Source: Candidatus Alkanophaga liquidiphilum (lineage in GTDB: Archaea; Halobacteriota; Syntropharchaeia; Alkanophagales; B39-G2). From it: DNA of 64,000 nucleotides. The stretch is taken from positions 21,399 through 85,398 of the forward strand of contig JAPHEF010000001.1 of the NCBI GenBank assembly GCA_029259535.1. Reading direction: 5' to 3'. Positions 2,579 to 63,400 of this stretch are shown here, piece after piece. The position numbers were made by a program, and so were the translations under genes. The notes below the pieces were generated by a model. It was not told where the DNA came from. It saw only the letters and a list, made by a program, of their open reading frames with translations, and searched no databases. The stretch's first letter is position 1. The number at the start of each line of letters is the position of its first letter.

Positions 2579-4054
2579 ATGGCGTCGCTGATATATGCAA
2601 AGGATATACCCGAGGCTTACGCGCTGGCAAACAACGAGATACTGGTGAGGGGCGTGGAAGCGGCGTCGGAGCGGGGCAATGTCAAATTTATCAACGACCT
2701 GCTCGTCGTGGTGGAGCGACCGGAAGTGGCGCTCGCCGAAGGCTCGCCGCACGCCTCCCACTTCTCACTTCTTGCAGAGACGCCAAACGAAGTTTGGAGG
2801 ATAGGAGGAGTCACCGGCGTCTTCGAGCGTGAAGAGACTTATGCCGACCGCTTCAGAAAACCCTTAGACCAGATAGGCAAAGGCGTGGAACTAATAAGGA
2901 GGAAGCCGTATTCGAGGAGGTTTTGCGTGAGCGTCGCCCGCCCTTGGGACGTGCTGAGCAGGACTCCGCCCGCTCTCATGGAAATTTACGTGCAGGTTTT
3001 GGAGGCTGCCGACGCGGACGCCGTTGAGCAGGAGGACGGCGGAGGACGCAGACGGGAAGAGCGGAAAGAAGTGCACGTCACCGGCTTTTTCAGGAGCGTT
3101 GACGTTTTCAATTACTTAAATCTGAACCTCAACGGGCTGTGCGAGCTTCAGGAGCTTATTTGCAGGGAAACCGGCTACGAGAAAGGAAGCATCGCTGCCC
3201 ATCTCGTGAATGCCCACTACTACCTCAGGAACGAGCGGCAGGTAGAAAAGGTCACCAGCAGTGCGGAGGCGAGAGCTGCTACTAGGAAAAGTGAGAGAGA
3301 AGCGGTGCGGCTCGGCGGGTTAATAAAGACGGAGCATCTGCCGTCAGGCTGGCGTGAGACTCTTGAGCTCATTTACCGACAAGGACTGCAGACGGAGACT
3401 GAGTGGGGCGAGGTTTTCGAGAGAAAGCGGCGGGCAAAGTTCGCTCACAGGCTTCTTTTAGAAATAGAGCGCCCGTCGGAGGACATGGAGGACGATAAGG
3501 CGCCGTTCACAAGGAAATATCTGGAGGAATATGCGTTGCGTTACGTGCTCGGCACGACAAATTTGCCGGCGACGGAATCCGAAATCCTCTACGAAGAGGG
3601 CGAAGCCTACACCTACGCTTCGAGGGCGAGGTATGAGCCCGCCGACATGGGATTCTTCGAGCTTAAAAAGCCTGTAGACCAACTTTATCACGCCATAGAA
3701 CTTCTTAGGAAGGACAAGAGGACGAGGCGTGCCACAATCGTCATATCGAGACCGTGGGACATTTTGAGTGAAGATCCAGCGTGTTTAAGGGGCTACGTGT
3801 TCCATGCAGATCCGCAAGACCCCGAAGCTCTGAGGATAACGCTGTTCATGCGTTCTAACGACGCCTACGGAGCGACTCTCGCAAACCAGTTTGCGTTCAC
3901 GAGGCTTGCGGAGTTCGTCGCCGCGAAGACGGGCTTCGAGTCCGTGAAATTGACGTTACTGGCGGCGAACATGCACATTTATGAGGACGCTTTTGAATTT
4001 GTTGAAGGCTTGTTGAAGCCGAAGATGCCGTCGTTCGGAGAGTTTTTTAGTTAA
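2579..4054 (+). CDS. Tandem-duplicated thymidylate synthase (ThyA)-fold protein, fused pseudo-dimer
   Basis: The 491 aa protein is two ~245 aa ThyA-like halves. Both halves carry the phosphate-binding RR..W(D/P) motif (RRFCVSVARPWD and RRATIVISRPWD). Both carry the RS.D...N-like segment (RSVDVFNYLNLN and RSNDAYGATLANQF). Only the second half keeps the nucleophile context P-x-C (DPACL); the first has PPAL. Confidence 0.6.
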   Translation: MASLIYAKDIPEAYALANNEILVRGVEAASERGNVKFINDLLVVVERPEVALAEGSPHASHFSLLAETPNEVWRIGGVTGVFEREETYADRFRKPLDQIGKGVELIRRKPYSRRFCVSVARPWDVLSRTPPALMEIYVQVLEAADADAVEQEDGGGRRREERKEVHVTGFFRSVDVFNYLNLNLNGLCELQELICRETGYEKGSIAAHLVNAHYYLRNERQVEKVTSSAEARAATRKSEREAVRLGGLIKTEHLPSGWRETLELIYRQGLQTETEWGEVFERKRRAKFAHRLLLEIERPSEDMEDDKAPFTRKYLEEYALRYVLGTTNLPATESEILYEEGEAYTYASRARYEPADMGFFELKKPVDQLYHAIELLRKDKRTRRATIVISRPWDILSEDPACLRGYVFHADPQDPEALRITLFMRSNDAYGATLANQFAFTRLAEFVAAKTGFESVKLTLLAANMHIYEDAFEFVEGLLKPKMPSFGEFFS

Positions 4055-9120: not shown

Positions 9121-10605
9121 CTAACCAGCTCTCGGCGTTGAGTCCCGAATCTCAGCATTCGCATCCACGGCTTCGTCTCTGACCGCAGCGGCGAGGCGTC
9201 TTCGTAGAATCTCGATGAGGAGCGTCCTCGCACGTTCGCCTTTAACGCCACGCACCGCCTCTGCCAGCTTTTTCTCGCCAAAGATATGGCAAATCCACTC
9301 AGCAAAATCGTTAGTGCTGTTCCTAAGATGGTATTTTATTGAGCGTTCGTCAATAATTTTGAGAATTTCGACCAGCTCCTCAATGCTGTATGCCACGAAT
9401 CCGGTGTGGCGGACGGTGCCGTCGTCGTCCTGCAAGTTGAAGTAGAAAGCTTCTTCTTCAGGAACTCGACGGAGGAGCTTGTTCTTAAGCGGGGTCTTCG
9501 GGCGGGCGTGCTCGAACCTGACGAAGCGTCGCAGCTCGCCCTTGAGCTTCGAACCGTAGGAGAGGCTGACAAACGGCCAAACCTTACCCTCAGCGAGGAC
9601 AGCATCGTAGATGCTGCAATAAGGACCGACGACCGAATCCACGACTCTGGCGCCACTCCTTACCATTGAGCTTTCGCCGATGATGCTGCACTTCACATAT
9701 GCGGAAGCGATTTCAGAATCTTCGAATAGCACAGATGCATGCAGCTCGGCGGACTCGACGACCGCACCCTCGCCGATGACGGTGGGTCCGTAAATAACGG
9801 CATCGGCAACAACTGCGCCCTCGCCTATGAAAACATCTCCGTATATCTCAGCGTCTCGCAGCTCTGCATCATCGACTGCGGCAACGGGAGTGCCGCCAGC
9901 ACGCTTTTTCAGGAGCCAAGCCACCGCCCGCATGTAGCCATCGGGCTTGCCGACGTCCACCCAGAAGCCCTTGACCTCGCAGCCGTAAAGTTCGCCTTCT
10001 TGTGCCAAAATCGGGAACAAGTCCTTTGAGAAATCAAAAGAACATCGCTCAGGCACATACTCCAAAACGTCGGGCTCAATCACGTAAAGCCCTGTGTTTA
10101 TCAGATTGCTAAAACACTCTTCGGGTCTGGGCTTCTCCTTAAACCTCTTTACTACGCCCTCCTCATCTATTTCCACAATCCCATAATGGTAAGGGTCGTC
10201 CACGTGCATCAGAGCTATCGTGGCGAGGCGTCCATGCTTCTTGTGGAACTTAATAAGCTCTTTTAAGTTTATATCGGTGATGTTGTCGCCTTGAATTATG
10301 ACGGCGGTCTCGTCGAGACCGGCATTCTTGACGGAGCCTGCAGTGCCCAGCGGCTCCGGCTCTTCAGGATACGAGAGTTTAAGGTTTTTTGCCTCCCCAC
10401 ATTTGCTAAGATGCTCAATTATCATCTCCCGTAGGTAGTTCGTAGTGATGGTTATGCTTTTTATGCCATGTATCTTCAGATACTTGACAATATGCTCTAA
10501 TATTGGCTTATCGACCAGCGGGAGCAGAGGCTTCGGCCTCGTGAATGTCAAGGGGCGAAGCCTCGTTCCAAAACCACCCGCGAGAATCACAGCTTTCGAC
10601 GTCAT
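9121..10605 (-). CDS. Sugar-1-phosphate nucleotidyltransferase (NDP-glucose pyrophosphorylase) with left-handed beta-helix and ~110 aa C-terminal extension
   Basis: The N-terminal AVILAGGFGTRLRPLT motif (G-x-G-T-R) is present. Hexapeptide-repeat region is present. An extra C-terminal domain has no obvious match. Adjacent to glgA. Confidence 0.8.
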   Translation of the reverse strand: MTSKAVILAGGFGTRLRPLTFTRPKPLLPLVDKPILEHIVKYLKIHGIKSITITTNYLREMIIEHLSKCGEAKNLKLSYPEEPEPLGTAGSVKNAGLDETAVIIQGDNITDINLKELIKFHKKHGRLATIALMHVDDPYHYGIVEIDEEGVVKRFKEKPRPEECFSNLINTGLYVIEPDVLEYVPERCSFDFSKDLFPILAQEGELYGCEVKGFWVDVGKPDGYMRAVAWLLKKRAGGTPVAAVDDAELRDAEIYGDVFIGEGAVVADAVIYGPTVIGEGAVVESAELHASVLFEDSEIASAYVKCSIIGESSMVRSGARVVDSVVGPYCSIYDAVLAEGKVWPFVSLSYGSKLKGELRRFVRFEHARPKTPLKNKLLRRVPEEEAFYFNLQDDDGTVRHTGFVAYSIEELVEILKIIDERSIKYHLRNSTNDFAEWICHIFGEKKLAEAVRGVKGERARTLLIEILRRRLAAAVRDEAVDANAEIRDSTPRAG

Positions 10606-22895: not shown

Positions 22896-24575
22896 ATGCC
22901 CGGGCGTGCAGAAGAGATTTGGATTGAGAAATACCGCCCTAAGACGCTCGACGAGATTGTAGGGCAGGAGGAAATCGTCAGAAACCTCAAGTCCTACGTT
23001 AAAGCGGGAAACATGCCGCATCTCATCTTTTCAGGACCCGCAGGCGTCGGGAAGACGGCAGCGGCAGTAGCGCTCGCCAGGGAGTTTTTCGGCGACGCCT
23101 ACGAAGAGAACTTCACCGAATTAAATGCATCGGTGACGCCTGAGACCGTCTTAGTGCTGCGTGCCGGCGGCAATATAACGAGTTTGAGTTTCAAGGAGCT
23201 TGACAAGCTGATTTTTGGAGATGACAAGGAAGAAGAATATGCAATATTACAAGGGGTCGAAGTCCTCTCGGTGGCAGATTACAAAATCAAATTCATGCCC
23301 GTCTCGGCGGTTGCAAGGCACAAAGCCGAACGTATTTTGAGAATAAAGCACGAGGGCGGGGAAATAAGCGTCACCCCTGACCATTCTTTAATCGTAATCA
23401 CTGAGAGCGGAGCTCTCGCTTCAAAACCCGCCGCAGAAGTGGAAACTGGCTCGTTTCTGATCTCCTTCTGCGATGGCGGCGGCAAGCTCCCCGCAGAACC
23501 CCTCTTGAATTTCCTCAGGAACGCAAACGCTGTAAGTTGGCATTTGAGCAACGTATGCAGCGCCGCCGACACCATTGAGAAATCGAAGATGTTGGGTGCC
23601 ATTAGGTCGGTTAACGCTAAGGAACTACACGAGGGAGAACAAAAGACCTTTGAGACGCTTAGGAAGCTTGCAAGCTCTAAGCTTCACGTCTTAAAAGTCA
23701 AGGACGTGAAAGAGATGAGCTACGACGGCTGGGTTTACGACGTGGGCGTCCCACGCACCGAGATGTTTTGGGGTTTCGCCGCTAACGGCAGAGTCACGTC
23801 TGTGATGGCGCCGCCCGTTTTGCTGCATAATTCAGACGAACGGGGCATAGATGTCGTGCGCAACAACATAAAGAATTTTGCGAGGATGATGGCCGTCGGC
23901 GGGAAGTTTAAGATAATTTTCCTTGACGAGGCTGACGCTCTCACCGACGCCGCCCAGTCCGCCTTAAGAAGGACGATGGAGCGCTACTCCGCAACGTGCA
24001 GGTTCATCTTCAGCTGCAACTACTCTTCAAAGATAATAGAGCCGATACAGTCGAGGTGCGCAGTTTATCGATTCAAGGCACTCCCCTATGACGCCATAAA
24101 GAAAAGGCTTCTCTACATTGCAAAGCAGGAACGCCTTAAGATTTCGGAGGAGGTCATAAAGGCGATATATGACGTTGCGGGTGGCGACATGCGACGAGCG
24201 ATAAATGCGCTGCAGAGCGCCGCCGCAGTGAGCAAGGAAATAACGCCAGAAATCATATACAATATCACGGCGACGCCGAGTCCCGAGGTGGTGGAGGCGC
24301 TGATAAGAAAAGCGTTATATGAAGATTTCTTTGAAGCTCTTGAGATGCTTAACACGCTTCTGGACGAGAAGGGCGTGGCGCCCGACGAGTTGCTTACACA
24401 GATGCATAAAACACTTTTGAATATGGAAATACCACCCGAAAAGAAGGTTTATTTGATAGACAGGATAGGAGAAGTGGATTTTAGGATTGCGGAGGGGGCG
24501 AACGAGCGAATTCAGCTTGAGGGGCTGCTCGCATTCTTTCACCTTTATGGAGGGCAGCGAGCTGGGGGCGTTTGA
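22896..24575 (+). CDS. rfcS: Replication factor C small subunit containing an in-frame intein
   Basis: The exteins give the canonical RFC small subunit. Walker A GPAGVGKT precedes ELNA|(intein)|SDERGIDVVR. The downstream RFC boxes follow (DEAD-like FLDEAD, SRC). Extein length is ~325 aa. Confidence 0.85.
   Translation: MPGRAEEIWIEKYRPKTLDEIVGQEEIVRNLKSYVKAGNMPHLIFSGPAGVGKTAAAVALAREFFGDAYEENFTELNASVTPETVLVLRAGGNITSLSFKELDKLIFGDDKEEEYAILQGVEVLSVADYKIKFMPVSAVARHKAERILRIKHEGGEISVTPDHSLIVITESGALASKPAAEVETGSFLISFCDGGGKLPAEPLLNFLRNANAVSWHLSNVCSAADTIEKSKMLGAIRSVNAKELHEGEQKTFETLRKLASSKLHVLKVKDVKEMSYDGWVYDVGVPRTEMFWGFAANGRVTSVMAPPVLLHNSDERGIDVVRNNIKNFARMMAVGGKFKIIFLDEADALTDAAQSALRRTMERYSATCRFIFSCNYSSKIIEPIQSRCAVYRFKALPYDAIKKRLLYIAKQERLKISEEVIKAIYDVAGGDMRRAINALQSAAAVSKEITPEIIYNITATPSPEVVEALIRKALYEDFFEALEMLNTLLDEKGVAPDELLTQMHKTLLNMEIPPEKKVYLIDRIGEVDFRIAEGANERIQLEGLLAFFHLYGGQRAGGV
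23130..23831 (+). other. Intein (~234 aa) inserted in RFC small subunit between ELNA and SDERGID
   Basis: The intein begins with Ser (block A SVTPETVLVL) and has block B TPDH. It ends ...VLLHN followed by the Ser +1 extein residue. No clear LAGLIDADG motif was seen. Confidence 0.7.
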
Positions 24576-52193: not shown

Positions 52194-54056
52194 ATGACCG
52201 ATGAGAGGGTCAGCTACCACGAAAGCATAAACGAGCAGTATCGGAGGGTGAAGGCTGACGGCGTGACGAACGTCATCGACCGTTTCAACGCCCAAGGGGC
52301 GAGATGCAAGTTCGGCGAGCGAGGTCTCTGCTGCCAGCTTTGCAGCATGGGTCCCTGCCGGATATCTGGAAAAGCCCCTTACGGCGCCTGCGGGATCGAC
52401 GCCGCGGGAATGGCGGTTCGGAATTTTGTCCATAAGAACTTATTGGGCACGATGGCTTACGCCCACCATGCTGTCGAAGCAGCAAAGACGTTAAAAGCCA
52501 CAGCCGAGGGAAAGACTCCTTTTGAGATCAAGGACGAAGAGAAGCTGAGATGGCTCGCTTCCCAGCTGGGAATTGATGGTGACGACGTTCAAGAACTCGC
52601 AAGGAAAGTTGCGGACTTCATACTTGAGGACATCAGCTCGCACGAGCCGAGCAAGCTTGTTGAGATATTTGCGCCCGAAAAGAGGAAGGAGCTCTGGCAG
52701 AAACTCGGAATCTTTCCGAGAGGGGTTTTCTACGAGCTTCTCGTCACAGGCACATCGGCGATGACGAATGTGGACTCCGACCATGTCTCTCTAGCGAAGA
52801 AGAGCATGCGGATGGGCATTGCAACATGTATGGCGGCGCAACTCTCCTTAGAGCTGGTCCAAGACATCCTCTTCGGCACGCCGATGCCGCACGAGAGCGA
52901 AGCCGACTTGGGCATCCTCGACCCCGAATACGTGAATATCGCCGTTGACGGCCACGAGCCCTTCGTCGCAGCCGCTCTAATTAAGCTCGCCGAGAGCGAA
53001 GAGGTTCAAAAGAGGGCGAGAGATGCCGGCGCAAAGGGTCTCCGTATTGTTGGCTTCATTGAAACCGGTCAGGAAATCCTGCAGCGCTCCGATAGCCCAG
53101 TCTTTGTGGGCATTGTTGGAAACTGGATCGTTCAAGAGTTTGCCCTTGCGACGGGCGCCGTCGATGTTTTTGCGGCGGACGTGAATTGCGCACTGCCGTC
53201 CCTTCCTGAATATCAGAAATACGGCGTCAGAATAGTGCCCGTGAGCGAGCTTGTGAGGCTCAAAGGTATCGACAAATGCTTAAATTACGAGCCTGATGCT
53301 GCTGAGGAGGTTGCGAGAGAGGTCATCGCCATCGCCATCGAAAACTTCAAGCAGAGGGGTAAAGCGGGCGTCCACAAAGTCGAAAAGAAGCAAAAGATCG
53401 TTGTAGGCTTCTCGCCAGAGGCGATTCTCAAGGCTCTCGGTGGGAAGCTCGACGCCCTGCTCGAAGCGATAAAAAGCGGCGACGTGAAGGGGGTTGTAGC
53501 CCTTGTGAGCTGCACGACGCTGAAGAATGGGCCGCATGACGTGAACACTGTAACTGTAGCAAGAGAATTGATAAAAAGGAACATTCTCGTGCTTTCGATG
53601 GGTTGCGGGAACGCCGCCCTGCAGCAGGCGGGCTTGACCTCGATGGACACTCTTGAACTCGCAGGCGAGCGCCTGAGGGCGGTCTGCGAAAAGCTCGGAA
53701 TTCCACCCGTTCTCAGTTTCGGGACATGCACCGACACCGGAAGATGTGCTTACTTGGTGAGGCTCGTCGCCGACGCCCTTGGCGTGGACGTTCCCGACCT
53801 GCCGGTGGCGGTCACCGCTCCCGAATACATGGAGCAGAAAGCCACGATCGATGCGGTGTTCGCAGTCGCATACGGGCTTACGACACACGTCTCGCCCGTT
53901 CCGCCGATAACCGGTAGCGAGGAAGCCGTTAAGCTTTTCACCGAGGACGTTGAGAAGCTCACCGGCGGAAAAGTAATAGTTGAGGAGGAGCCCGTGAAGG
54001 CGGCGGAGCTTCTGGAAAAAGTCATTGAAGAGAAGAGGGCGAAGCTGGGCATCTAA
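52194..54056 (+). CDS. cooS: Anaerobic carbon-monoxide dehydrogenase catalytic subunit
   Basis: N-terminal Cys clusters CKFGERGLCCQLCSMGPCRI ... GACGID are present. Conserved Ni-Fe-S cluster C ligands are present throughout. Length is 620 aa. Confidence 0.9.
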   Translation: MTDERVSYHESINEQYRRVKADGVTNVIDRFNAQGARCKFGERGLCCQLCSMGPCRISGKAPYGACGIDAAGMAVRNFVHKNLLGTMAYAHHAVEAAKTLKATAEGKTPFEIKDEEKLRWLASQLGIDGDDVQELARKVADFILEDISSHEPSKLVEIFAPEKRKELWQKLGIFPRGVFYELLVTGTSAMTNVDSDHVSLAKKSMRMGIATCMAAQLSLELVQDILFGTPMPHESEADLGILDPEYVNIAVDGHEPFVAAALIKLAESEEVQKRARDAGAKGLRIVGFIETGQEILQRSDSPVFVGIVGNWIVQEFALATGAVDVFAADVNCALPSLPEYQKYGVRIVPVSELVRLKGIDKCLNYEPDAAEEVAREVIAIAIENFKQRGKAGVHKVEKKQKIVVGFSPEAILKALGGKLDALLEAIKSGDVKGVVALVSCTTLKNGPHDVNTVTVARELIKRNILVLSMGCGNAALQQAGLTSMDTLELAGERLRAVCEKLGIPPVLSFGTCTDTGRCAYLVRLVADALGVDVPDLPVAVTAPEYMEQKATIDAVFAVAYGLTTHVSPVPPITGSEEAVKLFTEDVEKLTGGKVIVEEEPVKAAELLEKVIEEKRAKLGI

Positions 54057-54062
54057 AAGAGG

Positions 54063-54407
54063 GTGATCATGAAAATAATAGACGTAGAGAAGACGGAAGT
54101 CACTCCAAATCCGCATGGCGTCGCCGCCCGCAAGATATATGACGCAGAAAGCGCCCAGATAGTCCACATAACACTGAAGCCGGGGAAGCGGTTGAAGAAG
54201 CACGTGACGCCTGTCGACGTTGCCTTTTACGTGCTCGAAGGGAAAGGAATCATTGAGATCGGCGATGAGCGTAAAGAAGTAGGGCAGGATACGCTCATCG
54301 AAAGTCCGGCAGGAATTCCGCACTGCTGGTATAACGAGAGCAATGGTGTCCTCCGCGTCCTCGTCGTCAAAGCGCCGAGACCATCGAAGCCGACGAGAAT
54401 TCTATAA
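54063..54407 (+). CDS. Cupin-domain protein
   Basis: The 114 aa protein has cupin motifs (ITLKPGKRLKKH...H ; GIPHCWYNE). Confidence 0.6.
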   Translation: MIMKIIDVEKTEVTPNPHGVAARKIYDAESAQIVHITLKPGKRLKKHVTPVDVAFYVLEGKGIIEIGDERKEVGQDTLIESPAGIPHCWYNESNGVLRVLVVKAPRPSKPTRIL

Positions 54408-54472
54408 TTCCTGGAGCTTATGAGACCCTTGCACCCGTAAAGCGTAAATTCACCGACGACGGAAACCGAAAC

Positions 54473-55393
54473 ATGCAAAGTGTGGAGCTTTTAGTAGTGG
54501 GTGCCGGACCTGCAGGGCTAACTGCTGGGCTCTACGGCGTGCGTTCGGAGCTTAAGACGCTCGTGCTCGAAGCCGCCGCCCCCGGAGGGCAAATGGCGAC
54601 CGCCCCGAAGATCGAAAACTATCCCGGCTTCCCCGACGGCATCCCGGGCATGGAGCTCGCAGAACGCATGGAAGCGCAAGCAAGGAACGCAGGCGTCGAG
54701 ATTCGTAACTTTGAAAGTGTGGAAAGTGTCAGGAAGGAAGGGGGCGTCTTCGTCGTGGAGACCTCCGAAAACAGGTATGAGAGCGTTGCTGTCATAGTCG
54801 CTTCCGGGCTTTCGCACAAGAAGCTCGGCGTGCCGGGCGAAGCTGAGCTCCTAGGACGTGGCGTCTCGTATTGCGCAACGTGCGACGCCCCGCTCTTTAA
54901 GGGCAAAAGGGTGGCGGTCGTCGGCGATGGGACGGCGGCGGCGAATGCCGCGCTCACGCTCAGCGAGCTTGCTGACGTCAAAATGCTGGTCGGCGGCGAC
55001 GCCGTGCGAACTGCCGAAAAAATCATAGAGCGTCGCTTGAAAAAAAGCGGAGTGGAAATTCTGAAAAACGTTAAGGTCTTGGAAATTCTCGGCAAGAACC
55101 TCGTAAGCGGCGTGCGCGTGCTGAACACAGAAACTGGCGAGGAGTTCCTGCTGGAAATGGATGGCATTTTCATCGAAGTCGGGAAAGTGCCGAGCACCGG
55201 GTTTCTAAGGCTTGACGTGCAGCTCGACGAAAAAGGCTACATAATCGTGGATTCAAAGCAGCAAACCAGCGTCGAGGGCTTGTTCGCCGCCGGCGACGTC
55301 ACGTCTGGCGGCGTGAAGCAGGTGGTGACGGCGGTGGCGCAAGGGGCAATCGCCGCTCTCAATGCTTATGAATACGTGCGGAGTTGGGGCTAA
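54473..55393 (+). CDS. trxB: Thioredoxin-reductase-like FAD/NAD(P) flavoprotein
   Basis: The FAD motif is LLVVGAGPAGLTAG. The redox-active disulfide is CATCDAPLF. The NAD(P) motif is VAVVGDGTAA. The C-terminal motif is GDVTSGG. Confidence 0.8.
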   Translation: MQSVELLVVGAGPAGLTAGLYGVRSELKTLVLEAAAPGGQMATAPKIENYPGFPDGIPGMELAERMEAQARNAGVEIRNFESVESVRKEGGVFVVETSENRYESVAVIVASGLSHKKLGVPGEAELLGRGVSYCATCDAPLFKGKRVAVVGDGTAAANAALTLSELADVKMLVGGDAVRTAEKIIERRLKKSGVEILKNVKVLEILGKNLVSGVRVLNTETGEEFLLEMDGIFIEVGKVPSTGFLRLDVQLDEKGYIIVDSKQQTSVEGLFAAGDVTSGGVKQVVTAVAQGAIAALNAYEYVRSWG

Positions 55394-55405
55394 CATCTAC
55401 AAAAA

Positions 55406-56200
55406 ATGGAACTTGAGTTCTTATACAGCGGCGATTTTGGCAACGTCGTCATCGGCAACCTCGTGAATTATTCGACGTTCTGCCGAGCATGTGGGGAAGC
55501 GTGCGTAGAATGCCGAGTGGGCTGGAGCCATGCAGATAGCATCACGGCTGCCGTGAGCCTGCCGCCGCCCGAGAGCCTGCCCCATTTCTTAGACGCTCCC
55601 GAGAGCTTCTTGCTCGACTTAATCCCGGCAGACGTGCTCATAGCGATAAACATCCATCCTGACGTGCTCTTAAGTTTACCCAAACGTCTTGAGGAGCTTG
55701 GCGTTTGCGCTTTGATAGTTCCTGCTGAGAGCCCAAGGGAGCTGCCCGTGGGCGTCAGGCAGCAGCTAAAGGACGCTTGCGAGATGCATGGTGTCGAATA
55801 CGCCTTTCCGAAGCCGTTCTGCGCCTTAGACCCCAGGGACCCTGTAGTCAGCCGCTTTAAAACCGTGAGGCGCTTCGTCGAAGACTTTGGCGTCGGCAAG
55901 CCGGAACTGCGGATCTCGTTAAAAAGCGGAGCTATAAGCAGCGCTGAGGTCCTGCGGAGCGCCCCCTGCGGCTCTACATGGTTTGTCGCTCGGAAAATAA
56001 TAGGATTTAGGGCGCCGACCGACGCCGACGACGCTGCATTGCGCGAGCTGTTTGACGCGATTTCAAAAGCGCATCATTCTTACCCTTGCACGGCGAGCAT
56101 GGAGCTCGACAAGGAGCTCGGAGATACTGTCCTTCACAAAGCTGGATATCTGATTAGAGAAGCTATCCTTAAGGCCTTAAACGTAGAAATGCCCCTTTGA
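55406..56200 (+). CDS. Hypothetical Cys-rich protein (compact CxxCx3CxxC motif; possibly DUF166-like)
   Basis: An N-terminal FCRACGEACVEC cluster is present. No other recognised motifs were found. This is the last gene of the cooS-linked, same-strand run. Confidence 0.4.
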   Translation: MELEFLYSGDFGNVVIGNLVNYSTFCRACGEACVECRVGWSHADSITAAVSLPPPESLPHFLDAPESFLLDLIPADVLIAINIHPDVLLSLPKRLEELGVCALIVPAESPRELPVGVRQQLKDACEMHGVEYAFPKPFCALDPRDPVVSRFKTVRRFVEDFGVGKPELRISLKSGAISSAEVLRSAPCGSTWFVARKIIGFRAPTDADDAALRELFDAISKAHHSYPCTASMELDKELGDTVLHKAGYLIREAILKALNVEMPL

Positions 56201-56265: not shown

Positions 56266-56583
56266 ATGTACACGTCTTTCCTGCAATATGACCCCAGAGT
56301 TGTTCGCTCCTTGAAACGGAGCAGGGTCAGGGTTGCTATTTTATTATATCTCAACAAAATATACCCGAACATGTCTTATCCGGCGGAAATCGCTCGGAAT
56401 ATAGGAATCGACGCGACGAACGTGCTCGGCGGGCTCAGGGGCATGGGCAGTAGATATAACGGCTCCAGCTCCCTCGTGGAGCTCGGGCTTGTTGATAAGG
56501 TAGATATAAACGGCGTCAGTTATTACAAGCTCTCGAAAATAGGCAAGCAGGTCGTAGACATCTTAGAGTCCTCTCTATTTTAA
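56266..56583 (+). CDS. Small winged-helix DNA-binding protein (putative regulator)
   Basis: The 105 aa protein has a wHTH-like core (YPAEIARNIGIDATNVLGGLRGM...LVELGLVD). It lies in the low-GC island. Confidence 0.4.
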   Translation: MYTSFLQYDPRVVRSLKRSRVRVAILLYLNKIYPNMSYPAEIARNIGIDATNVLGGLRGMGSRYNGSSSLVELGLVDKVDINGVSYYKLSKIGKQVVDILESSLF

Positions 56584-56593
56584 GGGATGCGCT

Positions 56594-57535
56594 ATGAATA
56601 AGTTAATAACCGATATTGGCAACAGTATTGAAGCTGCTACGAGATTCGTTAAAGGCTATATAATATCTATAGGCTCTGTCACCAATATTTTCAGTGCTAT
56701 AGAAAACAACATACAAACGGTTGACGACATCGCTGAGGAATATGGCTATAGGAACAAGAGGCTCCTAAAGTTGTATTTGGATATTTTGTGCTCGTATTCC
56801 ATATTGAAAAAGGAAAATTCGAAATACTTCTTGGTCGATGGTGTGAATATAAGATTGGAGAAGCGAGATTTCATGCTCGATAAGATGAAAGAAGATCTCA
56901 TAAGCTTTTTTATGTCTTTGATAAACGTTTTTCCCCATCTGCTCATCGACCCGAACAACCCACTTGCCACCACCGACTTCGAAAGAGATGCTAATATCTG
57001 GAGCATTTGGTTGGAAAATGATTGGTTCAAGTCAGTAAGGTGGGCTATAACAGAAATAGGAAGAATAGGCAAGAGAGATTACATCTTGGACATGGGCAGC
57101 GGCTCCGTTTCCCCGCTATACTTTGCAGAAATCGTTGGTGAGAATGGGAGGGTTACAGGGCTGGACAAGTCCAAAAAAATGGTGGAAATCGCAAGGACGA
57201 AGATAGAAAACCGGGGGTATTCATGGGTCGAGATGGAGCACTGCGATATCGAAAACGATGTGGGGTTGGACGAAGAATACGACATCGTTATTCTTTCGAT
57301 GGTATTAGAATACGTGCATAATATGGAAAAAGTTATCGAAAATGCATACAACGCCCTGAAGGACGGCGGTAGGCTGATAATATTTAAAATGCCAGACAAT
57401 CCCATCATAAATTTTACAGAAGCACTAATACCGCAATTTGTTAAGCTGCGGACCACGAGAGAGATAAAAGAAGTTTTGACAAAAGTCATAGTCAAAGAGT
57501 ATGGAGACCTACTTATAGTTGCTCATAAGTATTAA
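56594..57535 (+). CDS. Class I SAM-dependent methyltransferase with N-terminal winged-helix/dimerisation domain (O-methyltransferase-like)
   Basis: Motif I is ILDMGSGSVSPL, with an acidic residue after beta2 (VTGLD) and motif IV (DIVILSMV). The N-terminal ~170 aa are a helical/wHTH domain. GC is ~38%. Confidence 0.7.
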   Translation: MNKLITDIGNSIEAATRFVKGYIISIGSVTNIFSAIENNIQTVDDIAEEYGYRNKRLLKLYLDILCSYSILKKENSKYFLVDGVNIRLEKRDFMLDKMKEDLISFFMSLINVFPHLLIDPNNPLATTDFERDANIWSIWLENDWFKSVRWAITEIGRIGKRDYILDMGSGSVSPLYFAEIVGENGRVTGLDKSKKMVEIARTKIENRGYSWVEMEHCDIENDVGLDEEYDIVILSMVLEYVHNMEKVIENAYNALKDGGRLIIFKMPDNPIINFTEALIPQFVKLRTTREIKEVLTKVIVKEYGDLLIVAHKY

Positions 57536-57621
57536 TAATTTATGTATATACAACATGCATATACGCCTACATATTCACTTATACATCTCGTTTTATCAGA
57601 TACAGCCCTCTAAGAGCGTTT

Positions 57622-58209
57622 GTGATAGGGCTTGGGCTGTTGAATACACCACAGCATTACACTGTTATTACTTTTGCAGCTATTGGTGCAGGACTTAAAT
57701 TCATAGACGATACTTTCGATGAAAACGTTTTTGACAAGAGGTTTGCGGGCGTCGTTGCTCCTGCGCTGGTAATAATGGCGTTAATCATGTCCGCAAACGA
57801 TACGGCAGCTGCGACCCTCCTACTTTCAATACTTCTAGCGGTTATTTTTGCGGGCAAGGTCGATAATTTGGTATTCAAGGTTAATGCTTTTGTTTTTTTG
57901 GTGTTGTTCTGCGTCACTGCCTCTTTTAACCTACTATGGTTTCATTTAGCTATTTTAACCGCCGCAGGCATCATTGATGAAAGAGGCAATGATTATATTG
58001 ATTCCCAACATGATACGTCCAAATTTTTGAGGGCATTCTTTGCTCATAGGTGCATGATGAAGGTCAGCATGCTGCTTTTATGCGCTTTTTCACCGCTTTC
58101 GTGGCTTTATTTCTTTGCACTTTTAGCTTTTGACGCGGCTTATGATTCTGTGAAATGGCTTTCTGACTGTAAAAAGGAGAGAAAAGGCGTTACAGCTACG
58201 GAGTCTTGA
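57622..58209 (+). CDS. Hypothetical polytopic membrane protein
   Basis: There are 5-6 TM helices and no recognisable domain. It lies in the low-GC island and ends 6 nt from the tRNA-Ala 3' end. Confidence 0.4.
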   Translation: MIGLGLLNTPQHYTVITFAAIGAGLKFIDDTFDENVFDKRFAGVVAPALVIMALIMSANDTAAATLLLSILLAVIFAGKVDNLVFKVNAFVFLVLFCVTASFNLLWFHLAILTAAGIIDERGNDYIDSQHDTSKFLRAFFAHRCMMKVSMLLLCAFSPLSWLYFFALLAFDAAYDSVKWLSDCKKERKGVTATES

Positions 58210-58214
58210 ATCTA

Positions 58215-58286
58215 TGGACCGGTCGGGATTTGAACCCGAGGCCTCTCGCACGCCAAGCGAGCGATCTTCCGCTGATCTACCGGCCC
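58215..58286 (-). tRNA. tRNA-Ala (anticodon GGC)
   Basis: The minus-strand sequence is GGGCCGGTAGATCAGCGGAAGATCGCTCGCTTGGCGTGCGAGAGGCCTCGGGTTCAAATCCCGACCGGTCCA. It folds as a cloverleaf with 7-bp acceptor, D and T arms (GGTTCAAATCC). The anticodon loop is TTGGCGT and the G3:U70 Ala identity pair is present. CCA is not encoded. Confidence 0.85.
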
Positions 58287-58451
58287 GTGTGGGCGTTATC
58301 AATCACACTTCGCCGCTTATCGTTTAAAAATTTAACGATTGCAAAAAGTATTTGTCCGACATCCGACCCAAATACGACGAAGGCAAATTCTCTTTTCCTT
58401 TCTTAAACAAGTTTTTATAGGGTCTGAGCGTCTTTTATACTGGGGTTGTGA

Positions 58452-59504
58452 ATGCCAGAGGAGATGAGTCATAGGGAGAGGTTGTTTGCGGCGTTCGAGC
58501 GGAGTTCTTATGACCGGGCGCCGTGTCCGGGGATTACGCAGACCGGGACGGTCGAGCTGATGGAGGCGAGCGGCGCTTTCTTCCCGGAGGTGCATTGGGA
58601 CGCTGAGAAGATGGCGAAGCTGGCGTGGGCGGCTTTCGAACATGCCGGACTCGAAGGCATCCGTGTCCCGTTCATCATTTACACCGAAGCGCTCGCCGTC
58701 GGCACTGAGCTTTTCAAATGGGAGAAGGACAACATGCCGATGGTGAAAAAATACCCATTCAGTAGCGTCGAGGAGGCTGCCGAGAAGTTAGAAGTCCCGA
58801 ATCCGAGAGAAGCTGAGAGCATGCGGGTTGTGCTGGACGCCATCGAGCTCTTAAAGCCAAAATGCGATGCTGAGAAGCTACCGCTGACCGGGCACGCCGT
58901 TGGCGCATTCCTCTTAGCCTTTGGCGTCGTGGATTTCATGAACGCCATGATAGCATTCAAGAAGAGCCCTGAAAGCTTTAGGGAAATCTGGGAGAAGACA
59001 AAAGAGCTTGTAATAACGTGGTCGGAGGCAATGATTGACGCCGGCGCCGACGTCATTTTTTACAACTGCGCAGCGCTCGGCAACTTCAGACCCGACGACT
59101 ACGAAAAACACGGGTTTTCTATTGACCGGGAGTGCATACGGAAAATAAAGGAAAAGGGGGCTTATGTGCTGGTCCACGTCTGTTCGGACATAAGGCCGGT
59201 GCTGGACCACGTGGTGAAGTTAGGGGCGGATGCTATTTCCGTGTCGGAAGTGGTGAAGATGGAGGATATTAGGAAGCGGGTCGGCGACGACGTCACGCTG
59301 ATGGGGAACGTGAACCAAGTATTCACGCTGATAAAGAGGGGGCCTGAGGAGGTCATGGCGGAGGCGAAGGCGTGTATAGAGGCGGGGACGGACATTCTGG
59401 CGCCGGGGTGCGGTTTCGGGACGAAGACGCCGCTCGCAAACATGCGTGCGATGGTGGATGCGGCTAAGAAATATGGGCACCTCGCCAGACTCGCTGGGAA
59501 ATAA
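58452..59504 (+). CDS. MtaA/MtbA-like methylcobamide methyltransferase (MT2; uroporphyrinogen-decarboxylase fold, Zn-dependent), paralog 1
   Basis: The 350 aa protein has URO-D-like N-terminal RERLFAA...RAPCPGITQTGTVELMEA. Zn-ligand contexts are VHVCSD (H-x-C) and APGCGFG. Confidence 0.75.
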   Translation: MPEEMSHRERLFAAFERSSYDRAPCPGITQTGTVELMEASGAFFPEVHWDAEKMAKLAWAAFEHAGLEGIRVPFIIYTEALAVGTELFKWEKDNMPMVKKYPFSSVEEAAEKLEVPNPREAESMRVVLDAIELLKPKCDAEKLPLTGHAVGAFLLAFGVVDFMNAMIAFKKSPESFREIWEKTKELVITWSEAMIDAGADVIFYNCAALGNFRPDDYEKHGFSIDRECIRKIKEKGAYVLVHVCSDIRPVLDHVVKLGADAISVSEVVKMEDIRKRVGDDVTLMGNVNQVFTLIKRGPEEVMAEAKACIEAGTDILAPGCGFGTKTPLANMRAMVDAAKKYGHLARLAGK

Positions 59505-59546
59505 TGCGGAAGAATTAAAACAGCGTCAGAATAAACAGGTGGTTGT

Positions 59547-60605
59547 ATGCCAGAGGAGATGAGTCATAGGGAGAGGTTGTTTGCGGCGTTCGAGCGGAGT
59601 TCTTATGACCGGGCGCCGTGTCCGGGGATTACGCAGACCGGGACGGTCGAGCTGATGGAGGCGAGCGGCGCTTTCTTCCCGGAGGTGCATTGGGACGCTG
59701 AGAAGATGGCGAGGCTGGCGTGGGCGGCTTTCGAACATGCCGGACTCGAAGGCGTCCGTGTCCCGTTCATCATTTACACCGAAGCGCTCGCCGTCGGTGT
59801 CGAGCTTGAGAAGTGGGCGAAGGACAACATGCCGATGGTCAAGAAGTTCGCGTTCGACAGTGTTGAGGAAATAGCCGAGAGGATGGAGATACCAGACCCG
59901 CAGACGGCGCCAAGCATGAAAGTCGTGCTGGATGCCATTAAGATTTTAAAGCCGAAGTGCGACGATGCGAAGCTTCCGATAACCTGCCACGTCGGCAGTG
60001 CGTTCGTTGGCGCCTTCCTCGGCATCGTGGACATGATGAAAGCCATGATAACATTCAAGAAGAACCCTGAGGTCTTCGGCGGCGTCTTCGAGAAGACGAA
60101 GCAATTGGCACTGACGTGGGCGGAAGCCGCTATCGAGGCGGGGAGCGATGTTATTTTCTACAACTGTGCTCCGCTTGGCAACTTTAGACCCACCGACTAT
60201 GAGAAATATGGGCTTCCTGTGGACAAGGAGTGCGTAAAGAAAATAAAGGACATGGGCGCCTACGTCGTCGTGCACGTCTGTTCGGACATAAGGCCGGTGC
60301 TGGACCACGTGGTGAAGTTAGGGGCGGATGCCATTTCCGTGTCGGAAGTGGTGAAGATGGAAGATATTAGGAAGCGGGTCGGCGACGACGTCACGCTGAT
60401 GGGGAACGTGAACCAAGTATTCACGCTGATAAAGAGGGGGCCTGAGGAGGTCATGGCGGAGGCGAAGGCGTGTATAGAGGCGGGGACGGACATTCTGGCG
60501 CCGGGGTGCGGTTTCGGGACGAAGACGCCGCTCGCAAACATGCGTGCGATGGTCGAGGCGGCTAAGAAATATGGGCACCTCGCCAGACTCGCTTCGGGGG
60601 CGTAA
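59547..60605 (+). CDS. MtaA/MtbA-like methylcobamide methyltransferase (MT2), paralog 2
   Basis: The first ~330 nt and last ~340 nt are near-identical at the DNA level to paralog 1. The central ~380 nt are divergent. Confidence 0.75.
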   Translation: MPEEMSHRERLFAAFERSSYDRAPCPGITQTGTVELMEASGAFFPEVHWDAEKMARLAWAAFEHAGLEGVRVPFIIYTEALAVGVELEKWAKDNMPMVKKFAFDSVEEIAERMEIPDPQTAPSMKVVLDAIKILKPKCDDAKLPITCHVGSAFVGAFLGIVDMMKAMITFKKNPEVFGGVFEKTKQLALTWAEAAIEAGSDVIFYNCAPLGNFRPTDYEKYGLPVDKECVKKIKDMGAYVVVHVCSDIRPVLDHVVKLGADAISVSEVVKMEDIRKRVGDDVTLMGNVNQVFTLIKRGPEEVMAEAKACIEAGTDILAPGCGFGTKTPLANMRAMVEAAKKYGHLARLASGA

Positions 60606-60607
60606 AA

Positions 60608-61663
60608 ATGGGAGATGAGATGAATTATAGGGAGCGGCTATTTGCCGCTTTAGACCAGAATCCGGTGGACCGGGCGCCGTGTCCGGGGATTACGCAGACC
60701 GGGACGGTCGAGCTGATGGAGGCGAGCGGCGCCTTCTTCCCGGAGGCGCATAAGGACGCTGAGAAGATGGCGAAGTTGGCGTGGGCGGCTTTCGAACATG
60801 CCGGACTCGAAGGCATCAGAATTCCTTTTATTGTTTATACCGAGGCGAGTGCGCTTGGCACAAGGCTTTACAAGTGGAAGAAAGACACGCAGCCCATGGT
60901 TGAAGAAGTTCCAATAAAGAGCCCAGAGGACATAGACAAGCTGGAAATTCCAGACCCGAGAGATGCGGAGTTGCCGTCTGTGGTGTTAAAGGCGATTGAG
61001 ATTTTGAAGCCGAAGTGCAACGCCGCAAAGCTGCCGCTGACTGTCATGGTGATAGCGCCGGCGACGATGTCGCTCGGTGGTGCTTTGGTTGACATAATGA
61101 AGGTGATGATGTGGGTGAAGACGAACATAGATGACACGGTGAAGCTTGCCAAAAAAGTAAGCGAGATGAGTCTCGCATTCGCTGAGGCAGTCGTGGACGC
61201 CGGCGCCGACGTCATCTTCTACAACGTTGGCATTTCCAGCAGGGTGAAAGAGTATCCTGAGGTCTTCTTCCCCATAGACAAAGAGGTCGCAGGCAAAATA
61301 CGGAAGATGGGCGTTTACATGGTTGCGCACCACTGCTCAGATCCAAGGCGGATAATAAACGAGCTTGCGAGTCTCGGCGCTCACGGATTGTCCATCCCGG
61401 AGCCGCAGATGATTCCCGTGCGGGAGGCACGTGAGCTCGTCGGCGACCGTGTGGCGCTCGTCGGCGGACTGGACCAGTTGCACACCCTGATAAAGAAGAG
61501 CCCAGAGGATGTGATGGAACAAGCAAAGACGGCGATAGAAGAGGGTATAGACGTGCTGGCGCCGGGGTGCGGTTTCGGGACGAAGACGCCGCTCGCAAAC
61601 ATGCGTGCGATGGTGGAGGCGGCTAAGAAATATGGGCACCTCGCCAGACTCGCTAAGAAGTAG
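60608..61663 (+). CDS. MtaA/MtbA-like methylcobamide methyltransferase (MT2), paralog 3 (more divergent)
   Basis: It shares identical ~80-nt (60661-60740) and ~100-nt (61558-61655) terminal blocks with paralogs 1 and 2. HHCSD and APGCGFG zinc contexts are retained. It starts 2 nt after the paralog 2 stop. Confidence 0.75.
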   Translation: MGDEMNYRERLFAALDQNPVDRAPCPGITQTGTVELMEASGAFFPEAHKDAEKMAKLAWAAFEHAGLEGIRIPFIVYTEASALGTRLYKWKKDTQPMVEEVPIKSPEDIDKLEIPDPRDAELPSVVLKAIEILKPKCNAAKLPLTVMVIAPATMSLGGALVDIMKVMMWVKTNIDDTVKLAKKVSEMSLAFAEAVVDAGADVIFYNVGISSRVKEYPEVFFPIDKEVAGKIRKMGVYMVAHHCSDPRRIINELASLGAHGLSIPEPQMIPVREARELVGDRVALVGGLDQLHTLIKKSPEDVMEQAKTAIEEGIDVLAPGCGFGTKTPLANMRAMVEAAKKYGHLARLAKK

Positions 61664-61696: not shown

Positions 61697-63400
61697 TCAT
61701 CCTACGACAAGGCTTACGAGCTTGAAAGCTTCGACGTCCACGAGCCCCTTGTCCGTGATTTTAAGCTTTGGGATGACGGGGAGTGCGAGGAACGACATCG
61801 TGATGAACGGCGAACGCAGCTTACAACCCAACTTCCTTACACTTTTTTCCAACGCTTCGAGCCTTGAGATAACTTCTTCGAGCGGCTTGTCGCTCATGAG
61901 TCCGGCAATGGGCAACGGGAGCTCCGCGACGATACGGCGGTCGCAGATGACAATCCCGCCGCCGAGCTCCCGAAGGCGGTTGCACGCCAACGCCATATCC
62001 TCGTCATTCGTGCCGACCGTTACGATGTTATGAGAGTCATGGGCTACTGAGGACGCAACTGCGCCCCGCTTCAGCCCGAAGCCGTAAACGAAGCCCAAGC
62101 CGATATTCCCGTCGGTGCGTCCGTGCCGCTCCAGCACCGCAATTTTCAAAACGTCGGCGTCCACATCCACGCCTTCTACCTCTTTGATTATCTCGTCGGT
62201 CAAAATTTCCCCTTCAATAATCCCTATGACCCTAACTTTCCTCCTGCCGTTCAAATCTATGTGGAAGTCCGCAGGCGTCACTTCTTTGATGCGGACAGTT
62301 TTTGTTGCGTGTTCCGGGTATTTAAACATCGTTTTGAAGCTTGCGGGCGAAATCGGTTTCCCGTCAATTATAACCCGCTCAACCTCGAAACGCTCCAAGT
62401 TCCGCAGCAAAACGATATCCGCGACCATGCCCGGCGTCAACGCCCCGATGCCCGGATGAACGTCAAGCCCGAAATAGGCGGCGACGTTAATCGTGCACAT
62501 CTGCACCGCCCGCACAGGGTCAACTCCCTCTTCAATCGCCCTTCGCAGCACGTAATCTAGATAACCTTGCTCCTTCAAGTCCTTAGGCGTGCGGTCGCCA
62601 TCAGTGACGAGCAATAAGTTCCGTCCGTCCTTTTCTCTGAGCAGAGGTGCAATCGATTTGAGATTCCTTGCGGCAGAGCCCTCTCGCACCATCACCCGCA
62701 GCCCAAGACGCAGCTTTTCAAGCGCCTCCTCGTAACTCGTGTTTTCATGGTCAGACCTTATTCCGGCGGCGACGTAAGCGTTCAACTCCTTCCCACTCAG
62801 TAAAGGAGCGTGCCCGTCCACCGGACGCCGAAGCGCACGAGCGGCAGCAATCTTCGCAAGGACACTTTCATCCTTAGAGAGGACGCCGGGGAAATTCATC
62901 ATCTCCGCAACGCCGAGCACCCCCGCTGTCTTGAGGAGCTCTTGAATCTCAGCGACGCCTATTTCCGCACCTGCCGTTTCGAGGGATGTCGCCGGCACGC
63001 AGGACGGCGCCATGCAGAAGACCTTAAGCGGCGTGCGTTTCGCTTCCTCAAGGAGCAGGCGAACGCCTTCTACGCCGAGCACGTTCGCAATCTCGTGCGG
63101 GTCGGCAACAACCGCCGCCGTCCCTCTCGGAACGACGACACGGGCGAACTCGGAGACAGAGAGCATGCTCATCTCAATGTGCGTGTGCCCGTCTATTAAG
63201 CCCGGAACGGCATAAAACCCTCTTGCGTCCATTTCTTCCCTGCCTGAATATTTTCCCAAGCCGGCTATTTTGCCATCGCAAACGGCAATGTCCGCCTCGT
63301 GAATCTCACCACTCATCACGTTGACGACGTTCACGCCCTTTATCACGAGGTCGGCGCTCTCTTCGCCCAGAGCCACGTCTATAAGTTTCATATCAACCAC
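61697..63400 (-). CDS. ade: Adenine deaminase
   Basis: The amidohydrolase metal motif is GLIDGHTHIEMSML. Length of 567 aa and C-terminal domain are typical of Ade. Confidence 0.85.
   Translation of the reverse strand: MVDMKLIDVALGEESADLVIKGVNVVNVMSGEIHEADIAVCDGKIAGLGKYSGREEMDARGFYAVPGLIDGHTHIEMSMLSVSEFARVVVPRGTAAVVADPHEIANVLGVEGVRLLLEEAKRTPLKVFCMAPSCVPATSLETAGAEIGVAEIQELLKTAGVLGVAEMMNFPGVLSKDESVLAKIAAARALRRPVDGHAPLLSGKELNAYVAAGIRSDHENTSYEEALEKLRLGLRVMVREGSAARNLKSIAPLLREKDGRNLLLVTDGDRTPKDLKEQGYLDYVLRRAIEEGVDPVRAVQMCTINVAAYFGLDVHPGIGALTPGMVADIVLLRNLERFEVERVIIDGKPISPASFKTMFKYPEHATKTVRIKEVTPADFHIDLNGRRKVRVIGIIEGEILTDEIIKEVEGVDVDADVLKIAVLERHGRTDGNIGLGFVYGFGLKRGAVASSVAHDSHNIVTVGTNDEDMALACNRLRELGGGIVICDRRIVAELPLPIAGLMSDKPLEEVISRLEALEKSVRKLGCKLRSPFITMSFLALPVIPKLKITDKGLVDVEAFKLVSLVVG

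Follow-up and report, generated by a model that had tools for sequence, protein, structure and literature searches.

Near-identical ends and divergent cores in a tandem array of three MtaA-like methyltransferase genes from Candidatus Alkanophaga

How can three adjacent genes be nearly identical at their ends and strongly different in the middle? The question is raised by a tandem array in Candidatus Alkanophaga liquidiphilum, on a stretch of 64,000 nucleotides (nt) of contig JAPHEF010000001.1 (positions 21,399 to 85,398 of the forward strand), which is referred to here as the window and numbered from its first nucleotide. The array comprises three plus-strand open reading frames (ORFs), located exactly where an earlier note on this DNA, made from the sequence alone, had placed them, and annotated from ORF, Pfam and NCBIfam evidence as MtaA-like zinc methyltransferase genes: gene 1 (58452-59504, 350 amino acids (aa), core type A), gene 2 (59547-60605, 352 aa, core type B) and gene 3 (60608-61663, 351 aa, core type C). 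Ca. Alkanophaga, which belongs to the class Syntropharchaeia, is known for the oxidation of C5-C14 alkanes at 70 °C via alkyl-coenzyme M (alkyl-CoM) reductases (PMC10322722).

We consider it probable, at roughly 0.75, that the array is a three-gene operon of the MtaA/CmuA family with old, conserved cores and with ends that have been overwritten by recombination within the array. Homologous recombination between the genes (gene conversion) repeatedly overwrites the gene ends, homogenizing types A and B over approximately 250-290 nt at the 5' end and approximately 320 nt at the 3' end, and all three paralogs over shorter sub-blocks (aa ~21-70 and ~316-346). Conversion would halt at the cores, which may be too diverged to recombine and which, if converted, would lose a selected function.

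When genomes were scanned, one for each GTDB species, the best match was the Ca. Alkanophaga volatiphilum metagenome-assembled genome (MAG) JAPHEE010000017 (L005). The flanks of its locus have the same synteny as the window and 79-80% nt identity to it, and the window species is distinct from A. volatiphilum. Three further loci (L002, L003 and L004) are 94-99% identical to L005 and are thus volatiphilum-like, and a 416-kb ENA contig (L001) is ~99% identical to the window and thus of the same species. Every comparison locus is a short-read metagenome assembly.

A mosaic of near-identical ends and divergent cores

Tract coordinates were taken from a codon-aligned comparison of the three genes, and all tracts lie on the plus strand. 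Genes 1 and 2 are joined by a 5' tract of 251 nt with 2 mismatches (58452-58702 and 59547-59797) and by a 3' tract of 321 nt with 4 mismatches (59175-59495 and 60273-60593). Between these tracts lie the divergent cores, at 58703-59174 in gene 1, 59798-60272 in gene 2 and approximately 60818-61555 in gene 3; nucleotide identity between the tracts is 55-77% for genes 1 and 2, and the cores of both are 53-60% identical to type C. This mosaic had been described in the earlier note, and the shared blocks of genes 1 and 2 with their divergent middle stand, but the 5' tract, given there as ~330 nt, ends at 251 nt, with identity decaying beyond that point. The 3' tract of gene 1 opens exactly at the codon for His242 (59175-59177), the first residue of an HxC zinc motif, and also contains the codons for Cys244 (59181-59183) and for the third ligand, Cys320 (59409-59411), so that types A and B would have one common zinc-binding, catalytic half.

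Gene 3 was said to share only two short identical terminal blocks with its neighbors; short blocks are indeed all that it shares, but there are three of them. The first is 65 nt long and exact in all three genes (58512-58576, 59607-59671 and 60668-60732). In the second, positions 60777-60817 of gene 3 match 58621-58661 of gene 1 exactly over 41 nt, and positions 60777-60814 match 59716-59753 of gene 2 exactly over 38 nt. The third is a 3' block of 99 nt with 1 mismatch (59397-59495, 60495-60593 and 61556-61654). In strain L001 the equivalent of gene 3 60668-60817 is an unbroken identity of 150 nt.

The significance of these runs was assessed by a Sawyer-type permutation of variable sites with 20000 shuffles. 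The observed run between genes 1 and 2 was reached in 0/20000 shuffles, a result obtained for types A and B in both species, and the run between genes 1 and 3 was reached in 11/20000; both are far beyond chance. The comparison of genes 2 and 3 was not significant (9044/20000), because blocks that are identical in all three genes hold no variable sites; for this pair the comparison between species, given below, takes the place of the test. GC content at third codon positions (GC3) is 0.75-0.84 in the homogenized blocks, 0.60-0.73 in the cores and 0.62-0.70 in ten other genes of the window, and in L002 it is 0.62 in the unconverted 3' part of type C and 0.83 in the converted A and B blocks. The GC3 excess of the blocks fits GC-biased gene conversion.

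Two smaller claims about the repeat did not hold. A duplicated 5' untranslated region had been proposed, but the repeat starts only 3 nt before the ATG, and otherwise nothing except a GGTTGT Shine-Dalgarno-like motif is common upstream. The 'identical antisense ORFs' amount to no more than the opposite strand of the 5' block; there is one mismatch between them (alignment nt 167), and beyond the block they diverge.

Ends, cores and gene order in two species

The comparison with the second species separates the history of the ends from that of the cores. In the N-terminal block (aa 21-80), nucleotide identity within a genome is 99-100% for A and B and 92-95% for A or B against C, as compared with 83-88% between species, and in the C-terminal block (aa 243-346, types A and B only) it is 99-100% within a genome and 85-87% between species. 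The core (aa 85-240) behaves in the opposite way, with 69-74% for A against B and 53-60% for A or B against C within a genome, and 78% for A, 80-82% for B and 80-84% for C between species. Neighbor-joining trees follow this pattern: the N-terminal block of all three paralogs groups by genome (bootstrap 93 and 100), as does the C-terminal block of types A and B (bootstrap 98 and 99), whereas the core groups by type (bootstrap 100 for each of A, B and C).

Identity at the ends could in principle be due only to very strong purifying selection on conserved segments, and the end blocks are in fact the most conserved protein regions throughout the clade. Selection at the protein level cannot, however, give the contrast that is seen at synonymous sites. 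The proportion of synonymous differences (pS, Nei-Gojobori) in the blocks is 0.00-0.04 within a genome and 0.31-0.51 between orthologs over the same codons: 0.00 for genes 1 and 2 at aa 21-80 against 0.31 for orthologs, 0.04 for their 3' tract against 0.43-0.51, and 0.00-0.04 for gene 3 against genes 1 and 2 at aa 316-346. An explanation from protein conservation is refuted by this contrast and is left with practically no probability. The claim that recurrent gene conversion homogenizes the ends is borne out by the same values, together with block trees that group by genome and core trees that group by type.

The cores can be traced further back. Type A has an ortholog in L002 (bootstrap 100), type B has orthologs in L002, L003, L004 and L005 (bootstrap 100) and P0005 as its sister (bootstrap 85), and type C groups with genes of L002-L004 and with homologs from other Syntropharchaeia and from ANME-1c (bootstrap 100). 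The grouping of type C and the position of P0005 as sister to type B indicate that the duplications are old. On these trees the duplications that gave rise to core types A, B and C took place before the two Alkanophaga species separated, and the separation of C from A and B predates divergence from other Syntropharchaeia and the ANME-1c lineages.

Had only one genome been at hand, the mosaic would have fitted equally well a set of young duplicates with ends that have not yet diverged and middles imported from divergent donors by horizontal transfer or as cassettes, and the order of the cores does differ between the species, so cores move. The presence of an ortholog of each of A, B and C in the second species, with relatives of C in other Syntropharchaeia, shows instead that the paralogs are older than speciation. 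Their ends are nevertheless species-specific and common to the paralogs, with pS of 0-0.04 against 0.3-0.5 for orthologs, which places homogenization after speciation, independently in both lineages. Recent duplication is thus very improbable. The end of the 5' tract also differs by species (251 nt in the window, 287 nt in L002), which argues that homogenization by conversion is recurrent and independent and that the tract does not follow a fixed module boundary.

Conversion may have continued within the window species. Between the window and L001, single nucleotide polymorphisms at alignment nt 126, 140, 145, 146, 822, 879 and 882 vary in concert between genes 1 and 2, which suggests conversion since the two strains split. 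At four of these sites, inside the block common to all three genes, genes 1 and 2 of the window (TTTG) are distinct from gene 3 (CCAA), which indicates that the window copies are phased. Four clustered changes in genes 1 and 2 of the window, within the otherwise conserved 58512-58661 block, replace Ala47 by Val and Lys49 by Trp (PEAHKD to PEVHWD), and gene 3, L001 and the other species retain the ancestral state at this patch. It looks as if the patch had a single origin, by mutation or import, in one gene and then spread to the other by copying.

Gene order and copy number vary among the loci. The order is A-B-C in the window and in L001, A-C-B in L002 and ?-C-B in L003; L004 has C-B, its first gene consisting of an A-like head on a C core, and L005 has a single gene with the same A-like head on a B core. 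The 42-nt spacer between genes 1 and 2 (59505-59546, plus strand) lies outside the repeat and is homologous to the 46-48-nt spacer that precedes type B in L002 and L004, where the upstream gene is of type C, and gene 3 starts 2 nt past the stop codon of gene 2. The 'spacer plus B' and 'tight junction plus C' units are thus kept and their order is swapped between the species, which, together with the variation in copy number, points to unequal crossing-over in the common blocks; the data fit a second role of these blocks as crossing-over sites.

All of this depends on repeats that short-read assembly handles poorly, and the blocks or even the whole array might be products of collapsed or chimeric repeats or of mixed strains. 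Several observations do weigh against our reading here. Every related locus comes from a short-read metagenome, and exact repeats of 250-320 nt (251 and 321 nt in the window) exceed typical k-mers and can collapse or be mis-joined, so that some of the copy-number variants may be artefacts. The co-changing polymorphisms could themselves be an assembly effect, since short-read assemblers may give two repeat copies one consensus. Copy number is different in each of the three volatiphilum-like assemblies, and the A. volatiphilum reference MAG, with its single hybrid gene, has an N at 9825 inside the common block and 600 Ns in the locus. That gene (L005 9739-10794, JAPHEE010000017), with an A/C-like head and a B core, probably represents a collapsed repeat; in other volatiphilum-like assemblies its place is taken by two or three genes.

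Against an artefact as the source of the array, two independent assemblies of the window species give the same A-B-C order with intact ORFs and different polymorphisms, and C-B-adenine deaminase is the arrangement in three independent assemblies of the other species. The window has no ambiguous bases and its copies are phased as described above, and collapse could not yield dozens of species-specific substitutions common to paralogs with cores that are 55-75% identical. We therefore regard an assembly artefact as highly unlikely, and prefer intra-array conversion around old cores.

Concerted evolution of parts of genes is known in prokaryotes from tufA/tufB and the rRNA operons. There, as here, paralogs are closer within a genome than orthologs are between genomes, the tracts are discrete, and the repeats drive changes of copy number by unequal crossing-over. 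Unlike those systems, the present array is homogenized at both gene ends only, with the central 40-45% exempt, and appears as three distinct, conserved 'cassettes' in a common frame. The kind of protein family and the kind of evolutionary process are thus already known; what is new is a subfamily specific to Syntropharchaeia, an architecture of cassettes in a common frame whose order and copy number vary, and a warning on gene counts in MAGs. The array is an unusually clean two-species case of partial-gene concerted evolution in an uncultured archaeon, in which three old central cassettes are conserved in a frame under continual homogenization, and the same repeats alter order and copy number. 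They also confuse short-read assembly, as the one hybrid gene of the published A. volatiphilum MAG illustrates against two or three elsewhere, and because of such collapse paralog counts of this family in alkane-oxidizing archaea are probably underestimated.

Protein family, selection on the cores and candidate functions

The Pfam URO-D family covers all three proteins end to end (E 1e-56 to 1e-64), and all three pass the cutoff (244 bits) of NF004889 (PRK06252, methylcobalamin:CoM methyltransferase subfamily) with 264-278 bits. By sequence the nearest solved structure, and the only close one, is Methanosarcina mazei MtaA (4AY7, E 2.5e-47). An AlphaFold2 model of gene 1 (predicted local distance difference test score 92.6, predicted template modeling score 0.92) is a URO-D-type (beta/alpha)8 barrel that has 4AY7 as its best PDB match, with template modeling (TM) scores of 0.90/0.94 and a root-mean-square deviation of 1.8 A; structures of uroporphyrinogen decarboxylase (UROD) reach TM ~0.8. 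The residues His242, Cys244 and Cys320 (gene 1 numbering) are invariant across 15 clade members; in the alignment with 4AY7 they fall on its H-I-C and PGCG motifs.

Could the proteins be true uroporphyrinogen decarboxylases (HemE)? The Pfam family is named for that enzyme and UROD structures are the next-best structural matches. The hemE profile TIGR01464, however, gives only 46-55 bits for the three proteins against a cutoff of 303, MtaA is the best match in both sequence and structure, and the proteins contain the zinc HxC...C motif, which UROD is not known to have. A HemE identity has next to no chance of being right, and the MtaA/CmuA-type assignment made at first reading agrees with profile scores, zinc motif and structure alike. 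The profiles do not all favor our assignment: TIGR01463 (mtaA_cmuA) gives 212-227 bits for the three proteins, just under its cutoff of 235.4, and neither the MtaA equivalog NF040654 (246-268 bits, cutoff 400) nor the MtbA equivalog NF041608 (196-200 bits, cutoff 600) is reached. The closest proteins, at 45-98% identity, come from metagenomes, Ca. Syntropharchaeia, Syntrophoarchaeum and ANME-1c, whereas Methanosarcina MtaA reaches 34-36% in the same comparison and no characterized MtaA exceeds 38%; no record holds exactly the gene 1 protein. From profiles and model we classify the array proteins as predicted MT2-like zinc methyltransferases that are not HemE and not orthologs of MtaA or MtbA, and that form a clade specific to Syntropharchaeia.

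The array proteins and Methanosarcina MtaA (4AY7/4AY8), a methylcobamide:CoM methyltransferase (MT2-A), have in common the URO-D-type barrel, a length of ~340-350 aa, the zinc ligands His-x-Cys...Cys and a stand-alone gene with no corrinoid protein adjacent. They differ in that the array proteins are only 31-36% identical to MtaA and form a tandem triplication with partial concerted evolution, and in the 'SVEE' segment of MtaA, where the first Glu aligns with Ser or Pro in the array proteins; this Glu (Glu263) is a resting-state zinc ligand. The host is also different, being an alkane oxidizer with alkyl-CoM reductases (Acr) and not a methylotrophic methanogen (PMC10322722). MtoA, the methyl-corrinoid:H4MPT methyltransferase of methoxydotrophy and the one pterin-directed enzyme put forward for comparison, is not applicable because it is an MtrH-like and not a URO-D-like protein (PMC8630106), and the window proteins match only URO-D. 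For that reason, and because all three thiol-activating zinc ligands are invariant, a pterin acceptor for the array enzymes seems unlikely.

In the gene 1 model the core comprises beta2-beta4 of the barrel together with the associated loops and helices. Residues that are fixed by type form clusters at aa 145-160, which correspond to strand beta3 with the following loop and helix, and at aa 168-194 and 222-235, which are mainly helical; type C differs around beta4, where it has a 2-residue deletion. These clustered elements are located on or close to the catalytic (C-terminal) face of the barrel, and they are what would be expected if, as the earlier note proposed, the cores were kept different by diversifying (positive) selection acting on a determinant of acceptor or specificity. 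Substitution rates do not agree with that proposal. Between orthologs the cores have a proportion of nonsynonymous differences (pN) of 0.06-0.09 and a ratio of nonsynonymous to synonymous rates (dN/dS) of 0.04-0.10, and between paralogs pN is 0.15-0.39, or 0.20-0.39 for the core at 58703-59174 and its counterparts, with pS saturated at ~0.7 and dN/dS ~0.1-0.2 where it can be estimated, dS being saturated. These values give no sign of an excess of dN over dS, each type is stable between species, and type A is absent from some volatiphilum-like assemblies, so that retention of three types is not absolute. Ongoing diversifying selection is therefore unlikely; the low ortholog dN/dS and saturated paralog pS indicate old cores under purifying selection.

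What the cores specify is a separate matter. Since the loops after beta3 and beta4 face the catalytic C-terminal side of the triosephosphate isomerase (TIM)-type barrel, a role in the choice of substrate or partner is reasonable, and on the model it is most likely the cores that decide between substrates or partners for each enzyme. All three enzymes would have a common catalytic zinc module, beta5-beta8 with His242, Cys244 and Cys320, and a common N-terminal helical module, and would differ in beta2-beta4 and in the loops of the catalytic face.

A Pfam scan of ~40 window ORFs found no B12-binding, MtaB, MttB or other MT1 domain. The lack of a corrinoid partner nearby, as first noted for the window, extends to ~10 other genomic contexts of the clade, including Syntrophoarchaeum and other Syntropharchaeia homologs: no corrinoid protein, MT1 or RamA-type activase is encoded in the 64-kb window or beside the clade members examined. 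This, too, counts against a methyltransferase operon of the kind that we propose, if weakly, because Methanosarcina mtaA is also unlinked to mtaCB. One ANME-1c homolog lies 2-4 kb from cobalamin-biosynthesis genes, which we treat as coincidence. Our best estimate is an MtaA-like chemistry, in which a zinc-activated thiol(ate) or thioether would react with a methyl-corrinoid, and the corrinoid would be supplied in trans by a protein encoded elsewhere in the genome, unless free cobamide is used.

Some clade members are found near genes related to mcr. One is 3.7 kb from an mcrBGA-type operon (L085 14807-20507; mcrB-G-...-A with inserted genes), one is two genes from mcrD (L087/L009; L087 7166-7555) and one adjoins an McrC-like gene (L008 11185-11868). 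Such proximity may hint at a functional link to CoM-thioether metabolism, but by a rough estimate its occurrence in 3 of ~11 contexts is only marginally above chance.

According to a hypothesis of Laso-Perez et al. (2016; cited in PMC6703427, PMC10811742 and PMC10322722), butyl-CoM is a substrate of the MtaA-like enzymes of Ca. Syntrophoarchaeum. Their genes belong to the same Syntropharchaeia-specific clade at 44-52% identity; a genome has several paralogs, none of the loci examined has a corrinoid protein beside the gene, and some copies are near mcr-related genes. They differ in that the copies are dispersed and not tandem, with no one-to-one match to types A, B and C. One may ask, then, whether the array encodes missing alkyl-CoM-processing enzymes of Acr-dependent alkane oxidizers and not enzymes of methylotrophy. 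The zinc thioether enzymes would in that case remove the alkyl group or relocate it to a corrinoid or other acceptor, towards acyl-CoA, and the three cores might be tuned to chain length or attachment position, paralleling the three Acr per Alkanophaga genome.

The restriction of the clade to Syntropharchaeia and the contexts near mcr/acr-related genes speak for this idea, as does the unsolved step from alkyl-CoM to acyl-CoA, which according to Zehnle et al. needs further investigation (PMC10322722). Other facts speak against it: members of the clade are also present in ANME-1c, which are methanotrophic, an alkane-oxidizing Hadarchaeon has no mtaAC genes (PMC10811742), and Zehnle et al. (2023) considered it unlikely that methyltransferases transfer the long alkyl groups of the C5-C14 alkanes used by Alkanophaga (PMC10322722). 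The supplements of that study, including the expression tables, have no uroporphyrinogen, methylcobamide or mtaA entry. A link to alkyl-CoM metabolism is speculative and we think it doubtful; if true, it would make the interest of the array high. An MtaA-like zinc-thiol chemistry is the reading that we retain.

The array and its surroundings

The array is bounded by a minus-strand gene for tRNA-Ala(GGC) (58215-58286) and by a convergent adenine deaminase gene (61697-63400). A putative archaeal promoter and leader lie at 58411-58451 on the plus strand, where a TTTTTATA box ~34-41 nt upstream of the ATG of gene 1 is followed by GGGG(T)TGTGA. The TTTTTATA box recurs in the second species, and the motifs GGTTTTTATA and TTTATACTGGGGTT are kept upstream of the first gene in both Alkanophaga species. 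Upstream of genes 2 and 3 there is no element comparable to the TTTTTATA box region, and because no promoter-like element precedes these genes the array is likely to be one operon of three genes. A sigma-70 and terminator scan of the locus was uninformative, the host being an archaeon. The mechanically called ORFs 58206-58406 (plus strand) and 58332-58643 (minus strand) overlap the tRNA-Ala gene or gene 1 in antisense and are almost certainly spurious.

Immediately before the array both Alkanophaga species have a conserved stretch of low GC content (56266-58209; GC 0.36-0.47 and GC3 0.41-0.50, compared with ~0.56 and ~0.65 in neighboring genes), which encodes an EarA-like regulator, a class I S-adenosylmethionine-dependent methyltransferase and a 195-aa membrane protein without a Pfam match. 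Further upstream, and likewise conserved in both species, a cluster at 52194-56200 encodes a CooS-type CO dehydrogenase, a small cupin, a thioredoxin-reductase-like flavoprotein and a DUF166 protein; in L002 and L004 it is preceded by genes for a Pyr_redox_2 flavoprotein, an HMP-family (PF07849) protein and a rubrerythrin.

Elsewhere in the window, the gene for the replication factor C small subunit (22896-24575) is split by an intein (Intein_splicing, aa 123-293). The region 2579-4054 encodes a 491-aa protein in which the match to thymidylate synthase is limited to the C-terminal part, and in a Syntrophoarchaeum MAG a similar protein of 473 aa is encoded close to the MtaA-like gene (L087 3737-5158).

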